Positions 15,935 to 63,540 of a stretch of 64,000 bases of DNA are shown piece by piece. Position 1 is the stretch's first letter; the number at the start of each line of letters is the position of its first letter. The position numbers and the translations under genes are program-made. Source of the stretch: Candidatus Aenigmatarchaeota archaeon (GTDB lineage: Archaea > Aenigmatarchaeota > Aenigmatarchaeia > CG10238-14 > SCSR01). The DNA lies in assembly GCA_039091335.1 (NCBI GenBank), contig JAWCME010000002.1:8735-72734 (forward strand), given 5' to 3'. A model generated the notes under the pieces. That model worked only from the letters and a program-made list of their open reading frames with translations, searched no databases and was not told where the DNA came from.

Positions 15935-16024
15935 GCCCCCGTAGCTCAACTTGGATAGAGCAGTGGCCTTCTAAGCCATTGGTTGCGGGTTCAAAAGCTT
16001 AGACTGAAATTCCCGTCGGGGGCA
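15935..16024 (+). tRNA. tRNA-Arg(UCU) with a 15-nt intron in the T-loop
   Basis: Hand-folded cloverleaf. Acceptor GCCCCCG/CGGGGGC, D arm GCTC/GAGC, anticodon arm GTGGC-CTTCTAA-GCCAT, T stem GCGGG/CCCGT. The T-loop is 22 nt instead of 7. Confidence 0.9.
15996..16010 (+). other. BHB intron at tRNA position 59/60
   Basis: The T stem forms the outer helix. Central helix TTCA(15990-93)/TGAA(16005-08), bulges AAA(15994-96) and ATT(16009-11). Excision leaves TTCAAAT. Confidence 0.8.
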
Positions 16025-16104
16025 CTTCCAAAAAATCGATTTTTAGGGAATTCTAAGATACATGTAAAGTTTATTACCTTTCAATAAACAATATTAATGT
16101 GTAA

Positions 16105-22622: not shown

Positions 22623-23066
22623 TTGGCTGTATTTAAGTTGGTAGTAAGCGAACCAGAAACAAAGAAGAGTTATCAGTTAGAAGTAGAGCAGAGTAAAGTT
22701 CAGTCTCTAATCGGAAAAAAAATTGGAGAAGAATTTCCTGGAGACCTTATTGGTTTAAATGGCTATATGTTAAAGATTACAGGAGGAACTGACAAGGATG
22801 GCTTTCCCATGCACCCATCTGTTTCTGGAATGGGAAGAAAAAAAGTTTTGTTGTCCTCTCCACCCTGTTTTCATCCAAGGTTAAAGGGGGAGAGAAGGAG
22901 AAAAACGGTAAGAGGAAACACAATAAGCGAAGATATAGTCCAAATAAATGTTAAGGTTACAAAAAAAGGAGAAAAGCCTTTAGAGGAATTAATCCCTGTT
23001 AAGCCCAAAGAAAAGAAAGAAGAGGAAAAAACAAAAGAGGAGATAGAAACAAAAACAGAAAAATAA
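22623..23066 (+). CDS. rps6e: ribosomal protein S6e
   Basis: MAVFKLVVSEPETKKSYQLEV pattern. TTG start preceded by SD GGTGAT (22614-22619). Confidence 0.9.
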   Translation: MAVFKLVVSEPETKKSYQLEVEQSKVQSLIGKKIGEEFPGDLIGLNGYMLKITGGTDKDGFPMHPSVSGMGRKKVLLSSPPCFHPRLKGERRRKTVRGNTISEDIVQINVKVTKKGEKPLEELIPVKPKEKKEEEKTKEEIETKTEK

Positions 23067-23127
23067 ATTACAAATAAAAATTTCATCTTTATTTTTATTT
23101 ATTAGAAAATATTTGAAGGGGTGATGA

Positions 23128-24373
23128 AAAGTAACAAAAGAGATTAATCCAAAGCTAATACCTAAATGTAACATAGGTATGGTCGGACATTGCTAAAGCA
23201 ACCGAAAACGTTGCGCATGGAAAGACAAGCCTAGTTGAAACAATTACTGGAAAGTCAACACTAATGCATTCTGAAGAATTGAAAAGGGGAATTACAATTC
23301 GCTTGGGTTATGCGGATGCAAAAATTTACAAATGTATAAAATGTGGAAAATATTGTTCAAGCGAAAAATGTCCTTTCTGTTTTTCTGATTGTGAGCTTCA
23401 AAGAACAGTAAGTTTTGTGGACGCCCCTGGACATGAAACTTTAATGGCCACAGTTTTAACTGGTGCTGCATTAATGAATGGGGCGATTCTTGTGATTGCA
23501 GCAAACGAGAAGTGTCCTCAGCCGCAGACTCGTGAGCATCTTACTGCTTTGGAAGTCGTTGGAATTAAAAATGTGATAATAGTTCAAAGCAAGATAGATT
23601 TGGTTACAGAAGAAAGGGCATTGGATAGCTATAAAGAAATAAAAGAATTCATTAAAGGAAGTAGCATAGAGAATTCCCCAATAATACCGGTTTCCTCTAA
23701 ACAGAGAATAAACATAAGTTCAGTTATAGAGGCAATAGAGGAATTCATTCCAGACCCGGAATTAGATGAGAAAAAAGAACTGAGAATGCTTGTTGCAAGA
23801 AGCTTTGACATAAATAAACCTGGTACAAGCCCGGAAAAGCTTGTTGGTGGGGTTTTGGGTGGAGCAATAATTCAGGGAAAATTAAGAGTTGGGGAGGAAA
23901 TTGAAATTAGACCAGGTGTAATGGTCGGCTCAAAAAGAATTCCGCTTTTTACTCATGTTTTAGGGATTAAAAAATCGAATATAGAAATGGAAGAGGCTGG
24001 TCCAGGAGGTTTGCTTGGGGTATTAACTGGCTTAGACCCATTTTTAACTAAGTCTGATTCTCTTGTGGGAAGTGTGGTTGGTCTTCCAGGAAAAATTCCA
24101 GAAACAAGAGAGGAGTTAAGAATAAATGTTAATTTACTTGAGAGAGCAGTTGGTTCAAAGGATTTGAGCGCAATATCTCCAATTAAAATAGGAGAAGAGC
24201 TTATGATAAACGTAGGAACAGCACGATCTATAGGAAAGGTTAGCTCAATTAAAAAAGATTATATTGAATTAAAACTTAAAATACCAGTATGTGCTGAGGA
24301 AAAAGAAAGGATAGCGATTTCTAGGTCAATCCTTGGAAGATGGAGGCTTATTGGTTGGGGTGTAATAAAGTAG
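23128..24373 (+). CDS. eif2g: translation initiation factor aIF2 gamma, interrupted by a 19-nt intron
   Basis: Exon 1 (to 23188) encodes ...KLIPKCNIGMVGH. Exon 2 (from 23208) encodes VAHGKTSLVETITGKSTLMHSEELKRGITIRLGYA..., and the track ORF 23264-24373 is only its distal part. The 5' end has no standard in-frame start codon (see findings). Confidence 0.9.
23189..23207 (+). other. BHB-type intron in the aIF2-gamma pre-mRNA
   Basis: Central helix TCGG(23183-86)/CCGA(23202-05), bulges ACA(23187-89) and AAA(23206-08), inner helix TTGC/GCAA with loop TAAA. Removal restores GHVAHGKT in frame. Confidence 0.75.
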
Positions 24374-52018: not shown

Positions 52019-52168
52019 TTATATTTTAATCCTTTTCCTGTTTACTCTAATTCTTCTTGTTCTGGCTCTCTTTAACCCAAATTTTTTTATATCGGCCCAT
52101 CTTGGAGCTTGCTTTACTTTCATTATTGCTCCAAGTTTAATCTTCTTAGCAATATTTTTTTTACTCAT
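52019..52168 (-). CDS. rpl39e: ribosomal protein L39e
   Basis: Own translation: MSKKNIAKKIKLGAIMKVKQAPRWADIKKFGLKRARTRRIRVNRKRIKI. ATGA overlap with the rrp42 stop. Below the track cutoff. Confidence 0.65.
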   Translation of the reverse strand: MSKKNIAKKIKLGAIMKVKQAPRWADIKKFGLKRARTRRIRVNRKRIKI

Positions 52169-52926
52169 AAAATCACTAACTCCCTTATTTCCTTGCTTTT
52201 TTCTATTGCCATCTCAATCATCTTTTCTATGTCTTCTGGGGACAATTCCTCATTTCCTTGTTTTTGAATAGAGCAGATCTTATCATCGTCCCTTACACAT
52301 ACCGCCAGCTTCGCATTGATAACATTTTCTTCTTCAAAATTTGGATCAACTAAAAATCTTTCTTTGATTTTTGCCACACTGATATTTATTGGTTTAAAAA
52401 CAACAGGCAAACTTTTTTCAAACTCTCCCCTAACTATTTTATCTCCCTCAAGTCTTGGTATTTTTGTGTTTAAAAGGGCAGCAACACTTGCCAAGGCCGA
52501 GGCATCAAGCAAATTTCCATGATGATTGAGGATATGGATGTCTATAAATACACCCCAAACCATTTTCCCTGGCTCTAAACAAATCTTTTCAAGTTCTATT
52601 GCCTTTGATTCCCTTATTCCCCTATCAACAATTCTCGCAAGCTCTATTGCGTCTTCTCCTGGTGGGCCTAACTCAAAATCAGGAGAAGCGAGTGGTGTGA
52701 ATTCTGCACTGACGGATAAAACCCCATGCTCAGGAGAATCAGGAAAGGGCTGTGTTATATCAAGCTTAACTCCTGCCATAACCTCTGTTTCACCCATTTT
52801 AACAAGTGCAGAGCCTTCAGCTTTTTTAATTATCCCTGTTTTTATTTCTATTTTTCTAAATTGGTCAAAAGACCTACCATCCACTCTTTTACCTTTTTCT
52901 AATAATTCTATTGTATAATTTTCCAT
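52165..52926 (-). CDS. rrp42: exosome complex subunit Rrp42
   Basis: RNase PH-like fold, GKRVDGRSFDQFR N-terminus, and position after rrp41. Confidence 0.9.
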   Translation of the reverse strand: MENYTIELLEKGKRVDGRSFDQFRKIEIKTGIIKKAEGSALVKMGETEVMAGVKLDITQPFPDSPEHGVLSVSAEFTPLASPDFELGPPGEDAIELARIVDRGIRESKAIELEKICLEPGKMVWGVFIDIHILNHHGNLLDASALASVAALLNTKIPRLEGDKIVRGEFEKSLPVVFKPINISVAKIKERFLVDPNFEEENVINAKLAVCVRDDDKICSIQKQGNEELSPEDIEKMIEMAIEKSKEIRELVIL

Positions 52927-53633
52927 TACAATCTACCATACTTTTCTTTCAAAACCTTTTTTTGTATTTCATATATTTTTTTGCAAGACTCTGTCCCCAT
53001 TTCTATAAGTTTCTTAATCTCTTCTCTTGTTAGAATTCCGTCCATCTGTAATAGTGTTATTTTATTTTTTGTTGGTAATATCGCAAACGCAACATCTGCC
53101 TCAGAGTGTTGGTCTTCTATGCCAGAGAGGTCAACTATGAGCTTATCGTCTATCTTTCCGATAGAGCATGCTGCCACCAAATCTTTCATAGGAATTCCTG
53201 CATCAGCAAGTGCTAGGCTAGCAGCATTTAATCCAGTAACACGAGTTGAGCCGTCTGCCTGTAAAACTTCTATAAAAACATCTATAACCGCCCTTGGAAA
53301 TTCTTCAAGAAATATTACCGGTTCAAGTGCAAGCCTCACAACTTTTGAGATTTCTGTGCTTCTTCTATCTGGTCCAGGGCTTTTCCTTTCATCTACACTA
53401 AATGGTGCCATGTTATATCTACACCTCAAAATACATTTCTCCGGCTCCCTAAGATGCTCCGGAAAAAGTGCTTTTGGTCCGTACACAGAAGCAATAACTA
53501 TGGTATTACCAAACCTTACCATGGCAGAACCATCTGCCCTAGAAACAGCATCTAGTTTTATCTCTATCTCTCTCATCTCTTCCGGTAATCTTCCATCAAG
53601 TCTTTTCCCCTCTTTTATCAACTCTACTTTCAT
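52926..53633 (-). CDS. rrp41: exosome complex exonuclease Rrp41
   Basis: RLDGRLPEEMREIEI...ADGSA RNase PH pattern. Confidence 0.92.
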   Translation of the reverse strand: MKVELIKEGKRLDGRLPEEMREIEIKLDAVSRADGSAMVRFGNTIVIASVYGPKALFPEHLREPEKCILRCRYNMAPFSVDERKSPGPDRRSTEISKVVRLALEPVIFLEEFPRAVIDVFIEVLQADGSTRVTGLNAASLALADAGIPMKDLVAACSIGKIDDKLIVDLSGIEDQHSEADVAFAILPTKNKITLLQMDGILTREEIKKLIEMGTESCKKIYEIQKKVLKEKYGRL

Positions 53634-54289
53634 TCGCTCAACATCCTCTCTATTTTTTCGGTCAACCCAATTAAATGAGACTCCTTCTCTATCGTTAAAA
53701 TTGCCTCTATAACTTTCGCTTTATTCACCCCATTTATCCAAACTATTCCATTTTGACCAGCTATAATCTCACATCCACTCTTAGATTTAAGTATTGTTAT
53801 CATACTTCCTCCCCTTCCTATTACTCTTGGTATTTTTGTTGGGGTGATTTTTATAGTAGTTCCTCCATATAACTTTCTTGCGCCTATAGTTTTCATACTT
53901 ATTGTAACGGTTTTGTTTTTTGCTACTTTTGATATCTTGCAATATATAAGCTCTCCCAAGTCATAATATCTACTAATATCTGTTTTGAGGATGTCAACAT
54001 ATTCTCCCACAGCTTCGCTGATAGGAAGGAATGCAGTATAAGGCGAATTTATGTCAACGACCCAGCCAGAAGTTTGTATGTCGCTTATTGTTCCAATAAC
54101 CATATCTCCAACAGATGGAATATAAACTCCAGAAAGTGCCACTACTGTTATTTCGTTTTCAGTTATCTTTGGTATTCCAAGAACCTTTGCAAAAACCTCT
54201 TCTCCTTCAGCATAAGCACCTCTTCCAATTCTCCTTCCTTTCCTTTCTCCTATTTTTTCTCCGGGCAATACTATCTCTCTAACTTCCAT
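53630..54289 (-). CDS. rrp4: exosome RNA-binding subunit Rrp4 (S1+KH)
   Basis: IVLPGEKIG N-terminus, an S1 domain and a KH domain (VIGRGGSMI). Confidence 0.9.
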   Translation of the reverse strand: MEVREIVLPGEKIGERKGRRIGRGAYAEGEEVFAKVLGIPKITENEITVVALSGVYIPSVGDMVIGTISDIQTSGWVVDINSPYTAFLPISEAVGEYVDILKTDISRYYDLGELIYCKISKVAKNKTVTISMKTIGARKLYGGTTIKITPTKIPRVIGRGGSMITILKSKSGCEIIAGQNGIVWINGVNKAKVIEAILTIEKESHLIGLTEKIERMLSE

Positions 54290-54995
54290 ATTCTTCCCTC
54301 TTTACTATTTTTAGTTCAAAGTCACCATGAGTAATTGAAGAAATTTTTTGAAAAAGTTCGTCTTTAATACCAGCCAAAACTTGTAGGCTAACTTTTAAAC
54401 TTCCGTCATTCAACCAAGTCTCTGATAATAAATTACCATAATTCCTTAGAAAAGAATAACCTTTTCCAGCATATTGAGCAGGAATTTTTATCTCCAGAGT
54501 TAGTTTTTGAAAGCTTATTGGTATGACTGTTTTTATTGCTTTCACCACATTATCAACCTGTTGCTCTGCATCAAGAAAAGGGTCTATGTTTATTCCAACC
54601 TTTTCTATTGCGCTTAATATTCTCTGAGGAGGATGTGGGGAGTTTGTTTGTGGGTTTATCCCTCTTCTTGAAATTATGTCTGCTATTTGGTTTTTTTTAG
54701 TTTTAATCATTTCCCTTCTTTGTTCTGTTGTAAGTTGTATCTCTCCTTCCTTTATTATTTTTTCTGCAACTTTAAGCACATCGGTTGTGCCAAAAACATT
54801 TTGCAATTCTGATTCCGGAATAGTTTCAGTGCTTCTAACATCACGATATATTGCCGGATATGCAAGTACATCTTCTATCAAAACCTTCTCCCCCTTCTTT
54901 AGTCCTAAGGCTTTGTAAGGATCTACCAACACCTCAAATTTTTTTCCAGAGCGATGTAGTCTAGCAATAACCGCCTTCTCTATGCTTACAGTCAA
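54279..54995 (-). CDS. sdo1: SBDS-family ribosome maturation protein
   Basis: AVIARLHRSGKKFEVLVDP pattern. TTG start after a GTGATGG SD-like element. Confidence 0.88.
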   Translation of the reverse strand: MTVSIEKAVIARLHRSGKKFEVLVDPYKALGLKKGEKVLIEDVLAYPAIYRDVRSTETIPESELQNVFGTTDVLKVAEKIIKEGEIQLTTEQRREMIKTKKNQIADIISRRGINPQTNSPHPPQRILSAIEKVGINIDPFLDAEQQVDNVVKAIKTVIPISFQKLTLEIKIPAQYAGKGYSFLRNYGNLLSETWLNDGSLKVSLQVLAGIKDELFQKISSITHGDFELKIVKREEYGS

Positions 54996-54999
54996 ACCA

Positions 55000-55739
55000 T
55001 CACTTAATTTTTTCCGTCTCTTCTCTACTTAACTTTCTAAATTTTCCATCCTTTTCTATTATTGCAATATCTATACTCTCTTCTTTTCCAATTTTTTCTG
55101 ATTTTGATAGAATATCAATTGCAAGTCTTATTGCTTCCTTTCTGTCCATTCCCTCCCTCCATTTCTGTCTCAATGTTTTGTTTGCTAGCGTCCCACCCCT
55201 TCCTATGCCGTATGCCTTCCACTCATAAAGCATACCAGAAGGATCTGATTCTATTAGATGCGCTCCAGTTTTGTCAACACCTCCAATAAGAATGGTTGTT
55301 CCAAAGGGTCTTAGTCCTGCATATAATGTGGAGAGTTGCATTCTATCACCTATTGCCCTTGCAATACCCCAAACATCTATAGGTTCTTCATAGGTTATTT
55401 TATGTACTTGTGCCTTTATTCTTGCTTGGTTTATCAAAACCCTAGCATCAGCTAACAACCCAGCTGAGACAGAACCTATGTGTTCATCTATCTGGAATAT
55501 CTTCTCCACGGATTCTGAAACGATTAATGTGCCTGTTGGCTTTATTGTTGCAAGTAGCACACCGTCCTTAAAGATAATTCCAAGGCAAGTTGTTCCTCTT
55601 TTGACAGCTTCTTTTGCATATTCTACTTGAAATAGTCTTCCGTCTGGGGAGAAGACAGCAATTGTTCTATCATAACCCATATGAGCAACCTTCAGCTATT
55701 AGCTGAAGGTTAATACTCTGGAAGTATTTGTGGTGGCAT
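55000..55739 (-). CDS. psmA: proteasome alpha subunit, with a 9-codon first exon and a 32-nt intron
   Basis: Exon 2 (55680-55000) is the track ORF, MGYDRTIAVFSPDGRLFQVEYA.... Exon 1 (55739-55713) is ATG CCA CCA CAA ATA CTT CCA GAG TAT, preceded by SD GAGGTGAT. The spliced product begins MPPQILPEYMGYDR.... Confidence 0.85.
55681..55712 (-). other. BHB-type intron in the psmA pre-mRNA
   Basis: On the minus strand: central helix GAGT(55718-15)/GCTC(55686-83), bulges ATT(55714-12) and ATA(55682-80), 10-12 bp inner palindrome, 4-bp outer helix. Confidence 0.75.
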
Positions 55740-55744
55740 TATTC

Positions 55745-55752
55745 ATCACCTC
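55745..55752 (-). promoter_or_regulatory. Shine-Dalgarno element for psmA exon 1
   Basis: GAGGTGAT lies 5 nt upstream of ATG 55739. The same GGTGAT-type element precedes rps6e and other genes here. Confidence 0.5.
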
Positions 55753-55815
55753 ATTTTTCTCCTAATCATAATAATCAATTTATTTTTATTAGTTTTTCAT
55801 GTTTTAAAATGTATG

Positions 55816-56154
55816 CTATAAACCCAAGGATTTTATTGTTCCAGATACTTTTAATATTTTAAAAATTACCCTTGAGTCTCCTAGTCTTGAGATAAGACCT
55901 AAACAAGAAATAACTTTTTGCACAGATTTGTTATTGCACTTTATTACTCCAACTTGTTCTTTTTCCTTATACAAATTCTTTATTATCCACAAAGAAGTTT
56001 GAGAAAAGCCATGCTCTCCAAAAAACTCTAAGCAGGAATTAATTATTGCGTGTTCTAAATCAGAATAGACTATTGGTTCTTCGGAAATAACCTTAAATTT
56101 TATGTATCTTTCTTTTTCCCTTAGCGTGGGCAACAAATTCTTTAGTTTTTTCAT
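55816..56154 (-). CDS. rnp2: RNase P protein component Pop5 (Rnp2)
   Basis: LPTLREKERYIKFKVISE pattern. Confidence 0.8.
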   Translation of the reverse strand: MKKLKNLLPTLREKERYIKFKVISEEPIVYSDLEHAIINSCLEFFGEHGFSQTSLWIIKNLYKEKEQVGVIKCNNKSVQKVISCLGLISRLGDSRVIFKILKVSGTIKSLGL

Positions 56155-56579
56155 TTTTTTCTCCTCATAATATCTATCAAAATTTTTCTATGGTCAAAAC
56201 CGAGATTTAGTTTTAAAGCCTCTTTTATTGGAAAAAAATCAACTTCTTCTGCTTCTCTTCTCGCTTTAACTCTATTTCCTATGGGTTTACAAAAGTATGC
56301 AATAGATATAACATGTCCTCTTGGGTCACGATTAGGAGAATCATAAATACCAATTAAATCCAGAATTTTTACTTCAAGTCCAGTTTCTTCTTTAACCTCT
56401 CTTATGCATGCCTCTTTTGTTTTTTCCCCAGGAATAACAAATCCTCCCGGAAGCGCATAACTCCCTTTAAACGGTTGTGTTTTTCTTTTCAATAAAAGCA
56501 CTCTTCCTCTATGAATAACAACAGCATCTACAGCCACAGGCACGGTTGGTCTTGTTACTTTTATTGCAGACATTCTCAT
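56151..56579 (-). CDS. NUDIX hydrolase
   Basis: Nudix box GGFVIPGEKTKEACIREVKEETGL. Start set to the ATG at 56579, which makes an ATGA overlap with the rnp3 stop. Confidence 0.85.
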   Translation of the reverse strand: MRMSAIKVTRPTVPVAVDAVVIHRGRVLLLKRKTQPFKGSYALPGGFVIPGEKTKEACIREVKEETGLEVKILDLIGIYDSPNRDPRGHVISIAYFCKPIGNRVKARREAEEVDFFPIKEALKLNLGFDHRKILIDIMRRKK

Positions 56580-57292
56580 CTCACTATCTTTACTCCAGGC
56601 ATAATCCATTTTTCATCCTTCCTCTCTTCAATCATCTTAATAATATTACTTGGAATATTTGTTATTGCATCCTTTGCTTCTTTATATTCTAGGCCAAGCT
56701 GACAAGCCATTGATACCAAGCATTCTGGGGCCCTAAGTTCCCAGCAAGATATTGCACCAGAGCAAAGTATTATTTTTGCACCAAACTTTTTTGCTAAAAA
56801 AACATTCTGTGCAATATTTTTTAATACGATACTCCTATTCCTTTTTGTAGATAGAAGAATTTCTCTAAAGTTTATTTCTATTGCTACATTATTCTCTGCA
56901 GCCAGTCTTACTGAAACATGGTCAAGCCCGGAATCATTTCTATTGTATTCGGGATGTGTCAAAATATCAACTTCTGGCGTCCCACACGCCTTTCTGTTTA
57001 AATTTAAATCCCCTCCTCTTGCCAGTAGAATATCAAACTCTCTTCTTCTATTTGCTAATTGTATCAATTCCTTTATGTTTCTGGCTTCAAAACCTAGTAG
57101 AATTTTTATTTTGGTTTTTTCTTCAACTCTTTTGATTTCAGCTTTTAATATTTCCTCCTCTTCCTTTCTAAGAGGATAAGAAGTAAAACAAATTCCACAA
57201 TATCCCAATTCTTTTGCCATGGACGCCAATTCTTCTAGGCTAGACTCACCACCTGAGAATGCACTATGTACATGTAAGTCATACGCCTTCAT
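56576..57292 (-). CDS. rnp3: RNase P protein component Rpp30 (Rnp3), PHP fold
   Basis: MKAYDLHVHS N-terminus and family length. Confidence 0.8.
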   Translation of the reverse strand: MKAYDLHVHSAFSGGESSLEELASMAKELGYCGICFTSYPLRKEEEEILKAEIKRVEEKTKIKILLGFEARNIKELIQLANRRREFDILLARGGDLNLNRKACGTPEVDILTHPEYNRNDSGLDHVSVRLAAENNVAIEINFREILLSTKRNRSIVLKNIAQNVFLAKKFGAKIILCSGAISCWELRAPECLVSMACQLGLEYKEAKDAITNIPSNIIKMIEERKDEKWIMPGVKIVR

Positions 57293-57326
57293 AATTATCT
57301 TGGTTTTGTTTTAAACTTAAATTTGA

Positions 57327-57830
57327 CTACTTTTTTCTTGATTTTTTGGCAGCAGCAGTTAATCCCCTTAAAGCCCTTTTTCTATGTGCAGGTAGAGATA
57401 TCCAATTAATCTTTGGGTCTTTAATTATATTTGGATTTTTAGGGTCTACAAGCAAACATTCAAACCATTTATACATACCATCTTCACCCACATAGTAGCT
57501 TCCAATTACTTCAAGGTTCGGGAATTTTCTGTTCGCTTTCTGTTCGGCTATTGCTTGTAAAGATTGTTTTGGTGTAAATTTTACTAGTCCTGACTTCGAC
57601 GGTTTCCTTCCTCTCCTTCCATAAAGTTTTCTCCTTCTTCCTCCCTTCCTTACTTTTACTCTAGCTACTACATATCCCTTCTTGGCTTTATATCCCAATT
57701 CCCTTGCTCTATCGAGACGAGTTGGCTTTTCTATTTTTTCTACTGTATGCTGCCTTCTCCATTCTATTAATTTTTCCTTTAACTCTTTCTTCCAATTTTC
57801 CTTTATATAATGATACATTCCTTTGACCAT
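57327..57830 (-). CDS. rpl15e: ribosomal protein L15e
   Basis: [11 protein letters not shown]...[16 protein letters not shown] pattern. Confidence 0.92.
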
Positions 57831-63096: not shown

Positions 63097-63392
63097 TTTT
63101 TCACCAAATATCTATAAATTTTTTTACAGTTTGAACACTTAACTGTAACGTATCCATTCTCAATTCTAATTGTTGAAGATATTCCTGGAATTAGAAAACT
63201 ATTGCATTCTTTACAAAATTTTCTCTTTAATTCTTTCTTTAATCTTACATTGTACCTTAGTCCAATTTTTCTTGCAAGTTCTACGTATCTTCTACTCCTT
63301 TCAGGATGTTTTTTTAATTCTTTCTCTGCAAGGTTGAACAATATTTCAATTCTTTCTTTAGCTATTTTTTTTGTCCAGGCAGCTTTTTTCAT
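63093..63392 (-). CDS. rnp4: RNase P protein component Rpr2/Rpp21 (Rnp4)
   Basis: ERIEILFNLAEK...RRYVELARKIG...CKEC...CSNC zinc ribbon. Confidence 0.8.
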   Translation of the reverse strand: MKKAAWTKKIAKERIEILFNLAEKELKKHPERSRRYVELARKIGLRYNVRLKKELKRKFCKECNSFLIPGISSTIRIENGYVTVKCSNCKKIYRYLVKK

Positions 63393-63472
63393 CTAATAAT
63401 AAATTGTTTTAAAATAAATTGAGTAAAGAATAAAAATGGGTCCGACCGGATTCGAACCGGTGACCTCCGCCG

Positions 63473-63484
63473 TTCTGATACATT
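63473..63484 (-). other. tRNA-Val intron 2 (canonical position 37/38)
   Basis: The 12 nt AATGTATCAGAA. Central helix CTGA/TCAG, bulges CGA and AAC. The anticodon stem forms the outer helix. Confidence 0.7.
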
Positions 63485-63492
63485 CGTCAGGG

Positions 63493-63505
63493 TTCCGCTC
63501 TCTCT
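63493..63505 (-). other. tRNA-Val intron 1 (position 29/30), relaxed BHB
   Basis: The 13 nt AGAGAGAGCGGAA. Central helix ACGT/GCGG has 3 pairs plus an A-G mismatch. Bulges CGA and AAC; 4-bp outer helix TAGG/CCTG. Confidence 0.55.
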
Positions 63506-63540
63506 CGACGTCCTACCACTAGACCACGGACCCAACTTTA

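Follow-up and report, generated by a model that had tools for sequence, protein, structure and literature searches.

A 19-nucleotide (nt) insert interrupts the gene of the translation initiation factor aIF2-gamma in a 64,000-nt stretch of DNA from a Candidatus Aenigmatarchaeota archaeon (contig JAWCME010000002.1 of GenBank assembly GCA_039091335.1). The whole stretch is termed the window, and coordinates given without a locus name refer to it; loci from relatives carry L numbers and proteins P numbers. From a comparison of DNA sequences the insert, at positions 23189–23207, is very probably an intron of the bulge-helix-bulge (BHB) type, i.e. of the type processed by archaeal splicing endonuclease, in the aIF2-gamma pre-mRNA of a member of the Aenigmatarchaeota (DPANN). 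Observed directly are the motif, its conservation and covariation in relatives, a unique junction, an intact product, and a tRNA mini-intron of the same genome that is under the same rule of cutting. From these we infer the splicing event and the enzymes that would act on the aIF2-gamma mRNA.

The interrupted gene and the joined product

The aIF2-gamma coding region (23121–24373, + strand) displays three pieces of reading frame. The gene that is cut by the insert extends from about position 23124 to 24373 (+), with the break between the GH codons and the VAHGKT codons. Frame A (23128–23190) has the translation KVTKEINPKLIPKCNIGMVGH and is closed by a TAA at 23194–96. Frame A+1, read from 23210, has the translation VAHGKTSLVETITGK / VAHGKTSLVETITGKSTLMHSEELKRGITI... 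and runs into the open reading frame (ORF) with its stop at 24373. Deletion of the insert, ATTGCTAAAGCAACCGAAA, creates GGA CAC GTT, i.e. G-H-V in frame. The frames and the insert are as described in an earlier sequence-only reading of this DNA, where it was proposed that 19 nt split aIF2-gamma between GH and V.

The 5′ exon is the open stretch at 23128–23188 (+), which encodes KVTKEINPKLIPKCNIGMVG plus the C of the His codon and is bounded upstream by TGA 23122 and TGA 23125. The 19-nt intron ATTGCTAAAGCAACCGAAA follows at 23189–23207 (+). The 3′ exon (23208–24373, +) contributes the AC of the His codon and then VAHGKT and the remaining sequence to the stop, encompassing the aIF2-gamma domains G, II and III.

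The joined product has a chain length of 408 amino acids (aa) and reads G-H-V-A-H-G-K-T through the G1 motif. It is full-length: the G1–G4 motifs and domains II and III are all present. An alignment with Pyrococcus aIF2-gamma (PDB 2d74) gives E = 2e-151 and is gap-free through G1, with NIGMVGHVAHGKT opposite NIGMVGHVDHGKT; the product is also colinear with PDB 1kk0 and 1s0u. The spliced translation matches two equivalog profiles, TIGR03680 (589 bits, cut-off 514.5) and NF003077 (594 bits, cut-off 315), and, as anticipated earlier, the match to the aIF2-gamma profiles is unbroken through G1. The predicted junction peptide is NIGMVGHVAHGK and the predicted mRNA junction k-mer is GGTATGGTCGGACACGTTGCGCATGG. 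The nearest public proteins show about 75% identity to the window aIF2-gamma, and the named ones are from Candidatus Aenigmatarchaeota.

The bulge-helix-bulge motif

In the minimum free energy fold of positions 23165–23230 the UCGG/CCGA helix, the ACA bulge and the UUGC/GCAA hairpin with its UAAA loop are all present (all positions that follow are on the + strand). The 5′ strand of the central helix (termed H), UCGG, is at 23183–23186 and consists of exon nucleotides from GUC GGA; its 3′ strand, CCGA, is at 23202–23205 and consists of intron nucleotides. The 5′ bulge ACA is at 23187–23189, with the predicted cut after C23188. The inner hairpin (h′), UUGC/loop UAAA/GCAA, encompasses 23190–23201 and carries the in-frame stop UAA (23194–96) inside its loop. 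The 3′ bulge AAA is at 23206–23208, with the predicted cut after A23207; among relatives the middle base varies between A, U and C. The arrangement is that of a 4-bp central helix with two 3-nt bulges on opposite strands, each located 3′ of its helix strand, and the same layout is found in 25 alleles. The inner flanking helix is 4–11 bp long across the alleles. The motif is of the relaxed HBh′ form, not the strict hBHBh′ form; relaxed HBh′ is a recognised class of intron motif (PMC5829648).

The pattern TCGGAC..CCGAANAC occurs once in the window. A naive scan of the window for BHB-like motifs that would merge ORFs was too unspecific to be of use; it gave dozens of matches, nearly all of them out of frame or between adjacent genes. 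A group I or group II self-splicing intron was considered and rejected, with an insert of 19 nt compared to a catalytic core of hundreds, and no Rfam match at the site.

Alleles of the insert in related genomes

The intron set consists of 25 distinct inserts of 19–33 nt at exactly this site, all from Aenigmatarchaeota assemblies. A metagenome pattern scan in which the inner 10–40 nt were unconstrained yielded 18 loci; most of the metagenome alleles were ascertained by a pattern that fixes UCGG, CCGA and most of the bulge bases. Five more insert-bearing loci were found by way of aberrant protein N-termini.

Several examples will be given. Protein P0071 starts with LEWSDIGDKPTEY|VAHGKT; it is encoded at L001, a locus that shares synteny with the window and in which 22 nt are inserted at the identical position (UCGG ACA UUGGU-GAUAA-ACCAA CCGA AUA C). 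In L014 the insert is 33 nt long, its inner stem has 11 bp, and the 5′ bulge is ACU. The loci L082–L104 have inserts of 19–22 nt in aIF2-gamma. A covariance model built from 15 alleles recovers all 15 and adds L038, which was missed by the fixed DNA pattern. L038 has a 31-nt insert with a central helix UUGG/CUAA; compared with UCGG/CCGA it displays one compensatory change (C-G to U-A) and one change of G-C to G-U.

In the 21 pattern-defined distinct alleles, pairs 1–4 of the inner helix are paired in 83 of 84 cells, with double-sided changes at every pair, and the pair types include UA/CG/GC, GC/AU and CG/GC/AU/UA. The observed pairing was reached by 0 of 5000 shuffles. Alignment A1 displays compensatory changes in 4/4 inner pairs, and its covariation score was reached by 0 of 500 shuffles. 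When the partner strand in A1 is slid by 1–3 columns, pairing falls from 90% to 17–42%, and A2 behaves alike (from 90–95% to ~20–40% overall). RNAalifold applied to the allele alignment gives H and h′ exactly, without an outer helix.

The only copy of the exact sequence found is the one in the window, as would be the case if the 19 nt were an assembly or sequencing artefact. Homologous inserts, with structured variation, have however been recovered at this position from more than 20 independently made assemblies (JGI, ENA, Logan, NCBI), which makes an artefact exceedingly improbable.

The exon side of the motif also differs between genes with and without the intron. The exon bases TCGGAC are present in 24 of 25 intron alleles vs 2 of the 40 closest intronless genes; synonymous positions of TCGGAC vary freely in intronless genes. 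Cutting after the second nt of each bulge joins GGAC|ACGU, and every allele then encodes G-H-V without a shift of frame. The 5′ bulge of L014 and L087 is ACU; there the His codon arises only by C|AC joining, and C|AC is the only valid junction.

The insert could also be dealt with by the ribosome, through a programmed +1 frameshift or a bypass of the T4 gene 60 type. The length of 19 nt is 3n+1, and the insert resembles gene 60 in having a stop codon and a hairpin after the break. The intron lengths, however, are 19, 20, 21, 22, 29, 30, 31 and 33 nt and fall in all three classes modulo 3, so that no single frameshift rule fits and the change of frame is not constant between alleles. Every intron of 3n length has an in-frame stop within 2–3 codons of the 5′ splice site. 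With respect to bypass, alleles with the 3′ bulge ACA have CAC before GUN, a possible landing site for tRNA-His, but the window, L001, L014 and others lack a matching His/Gly landing codon upstream of GUN (they have AAC or UAC there). Moreover, the take-off codon in L014 and L087 is CUU (Leu), and a hop from it would not yield His. The covarying helix lies in exact register with two 3-nt bulges over a 4-bp helix, and this is the endonuclease motif. Ribosomal handling is very improbable on these grounds.

Alleles without an insert are found in close relatives. GH and V are contiguous, with no insert, in 75 of 80 GTDB aIF2-gamma loci. In the intronless loci L013, L017 and L026 (2429–2452 in each) the sequence over the intron site is GTN GGA CAC GTN, and these give exon-only matches to the covariance model. 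L017 and L026 read GTC GGA CAC GTN with an exact TCGGAC, while the first codon in L013 is GTA. The L017/L026 sequence is possibly what would be expected after precise intron loss or at an unoccupied target site. The comparison of orthologous loci that was suggested earlier thus gave intronless alleles together with inserts at the same codon boundary. The earlier prediction that a gene caller would report a protein without the P-loop held: 8 of the 120 closest aIF2-gamma proteins start with read-through residues before V[AS]HGKT.

tRNA genes of the window

A tRNA-Arg(UCU) gene at 15935–16025 (+) has a 15-nt relaxed-BHB intron at positions 15996–16010, in the T-loop at position 59/60. The unspliced gene gives a sub-threshold Rfam match at 15935 and is missed by ARAGORN. 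Its T-arm reads GCGGG UUCA AA|A GCUUAGAC UGAA AU|U CCCGU. Deletion of 15996–16010 creates the T-loop UUCAAAU, and ARAGORN finds tRNA-Arg(TCT) only after this splicing; in-silico splicing confirms in this way the statement of the sequence-only reading that the cutting rule regenerates a canonical T-loop. This mini-intron shows that the window genome has an element obeying the same cutting rule as the aIF2-gamma insert.

A second putatively intron-bearing tRNA gene, tRNA-Pro(CGG), is 97 nt long (63437–63533, − strand) and has an insertion of ~25 nt in the anticodon arm. Its anticodon is preceded by a base other than U, which points to a non-canonical position of the intron. A match to HPnc0260 at 63333–63469 (+) scored 43 bits vs a gathering threshold of 59; it is antisense to the T-arm/acceptor region of tRNA-Pro and was judged spurious.

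Evidence on the other side

A number of points weigh against an endonuclease-spliced intron. The fold alone is at chance level (z-score −0.10 for 23165–23230), and combinations of 4 Watson-Crick bp, a 3-nt bulge and a 4-bp hairpin are found about 80 times per strand in the window vs about 50 in shuffled sequences. As the fold by itself is uninformative, the case rests on the position of the motif in the gene and on the comparison with relatives. Because the pattern used to ascertain metagenome alleles is fixed, the invariance of UCGG, CCGA and the bulges in that subset is not evidence. The case as a whole is made at the level of DNA comparison. Pfam scans of 30 window ORFs gave neither EndA nor RtcB, and no EndA was found by tblastn in the loci of relatives with an approximate M. 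jannaschii EndA sequence as query.

The outer flanking helix (h) of the strict hBHBh′ form is not present. In the 21 alleles, a G-C is found at pair 1 in 17, a C-G at pair 2 in 7, and pair 3 in none; the outer helix is limited to a single G-C pair, with a second pair in six alleles, and is lacking in the aIF5B introns described below. The weak outer helix in the original description of the motif is essentially absent, while the central helix, the bulges and the inner helix of that description are in the minimum free energy fold. With the outer helix missing, endonucleases of strict specificity are not expected to cut.

The same missing helix, which leaves the 3′ cleavage site outside a closed bulge, would suit a real RNA element that is removed or used by other means than EndA/RtcB, e.g. 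by another structure-specific nuclease, or as a regulatory hairpin gating a split or alternative product. That both hosts of the element are initiation factors also invites a regulatory interpretation. But the geometry fits EndA, as do the positions of the cuts and the precedent set by tRNA-Arg in this genome, and exon 2 alone lacks the glycine-histidine of the P-loop and often a start codon. We know of no other system that precisely excises 19–33 nt. Such an alternative route is unlikely, and a BHB intron spliced by EndA is the preferred interpretation.

The start of exon 1 presents a further difficulty, one that the sequence-only reading had missed. Upstream, TGA 23122 and TGA 23125 close frame A, in which the sole ATG/GTG/TTG is the M of NIGMVGH. 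The start codons expected from homologs, GTG 23121 and ATG 23124 (23121–23126, +), are in a Shine-Dalgarno-like context, GAAGGGGTGAT (GGGGTGAT), and are one base off the exon 1 frame, with an AAAA run between. Homologs begin at the GTG within GGAGGTG; L104 reads GTG AAG GAA GTA ACA vs GTG ATG AAA A GTA ACA in the window, i.e. with an extra A. In view of this start problem, the window copy of aIF2-gamma could be damaged or mis-sequenced.

A like +1 offset is found at 2349–2368 of L014, an independent SPAdes assembly at 28x, which reads GTG AAG AAA AA|T with an AAAAA run after GGAGGTG; deletion of one A in L014 restores (M)KKIDPRLIPE. The other intron alleles have normal in-frame starts. The offset may represent a homopolymer error that occurred twice, +1 slippage on AAA-A, or the use of the near-cognate start ATT 23143; the codon at the position of ATT 23143 is ATA in L014, ATG in L101 and TTG in L100. 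N-truncated M[VL]GHV... calls (P0024, P0026, P0094) were considered as cases of the same anomaly and rejected: in these intronless genes an in-frame GTG/TTG is present, and the truncations are choices of the gene caller.

These two lesions in the first 90 nt (the 1-nt offset and the 19-nt insert) raise the question of whether the window aIF2-gamma is a pseudogene or a damaged copy that is not functionally expressed. Exon 1 lacks an in-frame canonical start, GTG 23121 and ATG 23124 being one base off in an A-run, and an exact-sequence look-up of the 369-aa ORF in a public protein collection gave no entry, so that there is no independent copy. Decay of this kind is nevertheless improbable. The other 388 codons are open, with about 75% identity to orthologs and all motifs kept, and the gene is at the orthologous syntenic position. 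The insert is conserved and covarying in more than 20 other genomes with normal exon 1 starts, and the occurrence of the same 1-nt anomaly in the independent L014 assembly argues against random decay. In addition, long intact ORFs are present elsewhere in the window, which is not frameshift-ridden. The region 52165–57830 (−) contains an intact, conserved archaeal cluster: the Rrp42/Rrp41/Rrp4 exosome, SBDS, proteasome alpha, NUDIX, RNase P p30 and L15e. The assembly is thus not generally frameshifted.

Neighbouring genes are that of ribosomal protein S6e upstream (22623–23066) and, downstream, a small ORF on the opposite strand and a PIN gene. The order of the aIF2-gamma locus is conserved, with an orthologous syntenic position in relatives. 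The window has a G+C content of 33.5%. The S6e gene of relatives extends with its 3′ end up to or into the start of aIF2-gamma (GGAGGTGA... codes for the S6e tail ..EGGEE..). S6e of the window stops short of this (23066), and positions 23067–23126 consist of a 55-nt AT-rich spacer with a TATA-like TTTATTTTTATTTATT, and then a tail remnant, GAAGGGGTGATGAAAAGTAAC. This early end of S6e and the TATA-like spacer may mean that aIF2-gamma has its own promoter and a near-leaderless transcript.

Probable introns in the paralog aIF5B, and inteins

Five of the pattern matches are in another translation initiation factor, aIF5B, with RQPIVAVLGH upstream and VDHGKTSLLD downstream of 30-nt introns at GH|V. 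The spliced aIF5B products are 593–606 aa in length (NF003078, 800 bits; PDB 1g7r, E = 1e-169). The aIF5B introns, of 29–30 nt, are at L084 2412–2465 (−), L085 5479–5532, L089 725–778, L091 1315–1366, L095 383–437 (−) and, in L108–L110, at ~530–620. In the three aIF5B loci that were checked, L108–L110, the introns are 29–30 nt and the junction is C|AU. Two of these three are from metagenome-assembled genomes (MAGs) at NCBI, GCA_025058005.1 and GCA_038999715.1. Among the closest 120 aIF5B proteins (Aenigmatarchaeota), 29 are N-truncated or start with ...(T/P)EN|VDHGKT. The window itself was found to contain no aIF5B or other translational GTPase, and no contig is common to the closest aIF2-gamma set and the closest aIF5B set.

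The aIF2-gamma P-loop is also a site of inteins. An intein of ~520–620 aa is found after GK| (HGK|C...HN|T) in L021 (~890–2461), L038 (~590–2461) and L023 (1–71). In L038 (JBHIDR010000003.1) a 31-nt intron and an intein are present in one gene, five codons apart. Positions 1–34 of L023, at the contig end of CAZXOT010000017.1, start with TCGGTCGGCAGCGTCAGATGTGTATAAGAGACAG; this resembles a Nextera transposase adapter, presumably one that was not trimmed from the contig of a public MAG.

In a neighbour-joining tree of 162 sequences (rough, and based on a single protein), the intron-bearing aIF2-gamma sequences are scattered among intronless sisters. The presence of a putative intron family at GH|V of both aIF2-gamma and its paralog aIF5B, patchy among close relatives, suggests repeated gain and loss and, possibly, mobility. 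For tRNAs, it has been proposed that relaxed-motif introns transpose from one site to a related one. A bolder proposal is that of a mobile mini-intron family that targets UCGGAC|ACGU (GH|V, P-loop) of translational GTPases and moves between paralogs and lineages by reverse splicing or homing; splicing may then be a checkpoint on initiation factors, in the manner of HAC1/XBP1, and the +1 offset in the A-run may be programmed. We consider this tentative and rather doubtful as a whole. A mobile family would account for the occupation of one site in two genes, the patchiness, the exact TCGGACACGT of intronless alleles, and the presence of inteins in the same motif. As both hosts are initiation factors, splicing may tie their supply to tRNA-splicing activity.

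Proposed processing of the transcript

The BHB intron is envisaged to be processed as follows. In the transcript, the exon UCGG would pair with the intron CCGA to form the 4-bp central helix. The 4-bp hairpin in the intron would close the 5′ bulge ACA, and the 3′ bulge AAA would be followed by at most 1–2 outer pairs. The tRNA-splicing endonuclease (EndA) would cleave each bulge 3′ of its second base, and a ligase of the RtcB type would join ...GGAC to ACGUU..., creating the His codon CAC and an intact P-loop, GHVAHGKT. Translation of unspliced aIF2-gamma mRNA would terminate at the UAA inside the intron. The motif is ~60 nt into the ORF; splicing would have to compete with coupled translation, and the early stop would free ribosomes from unspliced RNA.

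Significance and comparison with known systems

In the literature searched, the archaeal mRNAs cited as endonuclease-processed are only cbf5 (Crenarchaeota) and HVO_1309 (Haloferax) (PMC10485636, PMC2738675, PMC5829648), and a 2023 review considers that more endonuclease-spliced archaeal mRNAs are probably still to be found. No prior report of introns in aIF2-gamma or aIF5B, or of BHB introns in DPANN mRNA, was found in the literature searched, which had subscription journals outside its scope. With strong comparative support, the present loci would add two essential translation-initiation genes, in a DPANN phylum, to this rare class. Relaxed motifs in mRNA, with cbf5 and HVO_1309 as examples, are a known class of substrate of broad-specificity archaeal endonucleases (PMC10485636, PMC2738675, PMC5829648). 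They are cut only by the broad-specificity (alpha-beta)2 and epsilon2 enzymes, and disrupted tRNA genes go together with DPANN alpha4 endonucleases that carry an extra loop (PMC5829648).

What is unusual here is that the insert lies in the P-loop, that two paralogs share it and that an intein can occur together with it. With the same site occupied in two paralogs, a patchy distribution and an intein five codons away, it becomes possible to test outside tRNA genes how BHB introns arise and move. There is also a consequence for annotation: as called in public data, some 7% of the nearest aIF2-gamma entries and some 24% of those nearest to aIF5B lack the P-loop or have junk N-termini, including entries from deposited NCBI MAGs. 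aIF2-gamma and aIF5B are archaeal phylogenomic markers. Where both genes serve in this way, DPANN marker alignments and completeness estimates would be affected.

A close parallel among mRNAs is the cbf5 pre-mRNA intron (Watanabe 2002; Yoshinari 2006; Yokobori 2009, PMC2738675), which gene callers and others have mistaken for a frameshift. The cbf5 introns are found in Desulfurococcales/Sulfolobales with an (alpha-beta)2 endonuclease, in contrast to the DPANN Aenigmatarchaeota here. Moreover, the hosts here are translational GTPases, and the putative intron lies within the codons of the universal P-loop, at a homologous site in two paralogs. HVO_1309 of Haloferax volcanii (PMC7714728; review PMC10485636) is likewise a BHB substrate in mRNA that is neither tRNA nor rRNA. 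It is however one gene only, the host is a euryarchaeon whose enzyme is of the alpha2 type, and in the text consulted neither disruption of a conserved motif nor sharing between paralogs is reported.

The non-canonical tRNA introns with hBH/HBh′ motifs (Thermoproteales, ARMAN and other DPANN; PMC5829648, PMC3239211) are alike in motif, size range (11–175 nt) and cutting rule. The difference is that the host here is an mRNA, with half of the central helix and the junction consisting of constrained codon positions. HAC1/XBP1 of eukaryotes (IRE1 plus tRNA ligase/RtcB) resembles the proposed splicing in having a short, spliceosome-independent mRNA intron, paired stem-loops, joining by a tRNA ligase and a change of frame that switches the product on; the nuclease there is IRE1, not a tRNA endonuclease, and splicing is stress-regulated. 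Finally, the inteins in P-loops of archaeal GTPases and ATPases, examples of which are those in L021, L023 and L038, are likewise selfish insertions in the most conserved motif of an essential gene. They differ in being protein-level elements of 500–600 aa that are removed by protein splicing.

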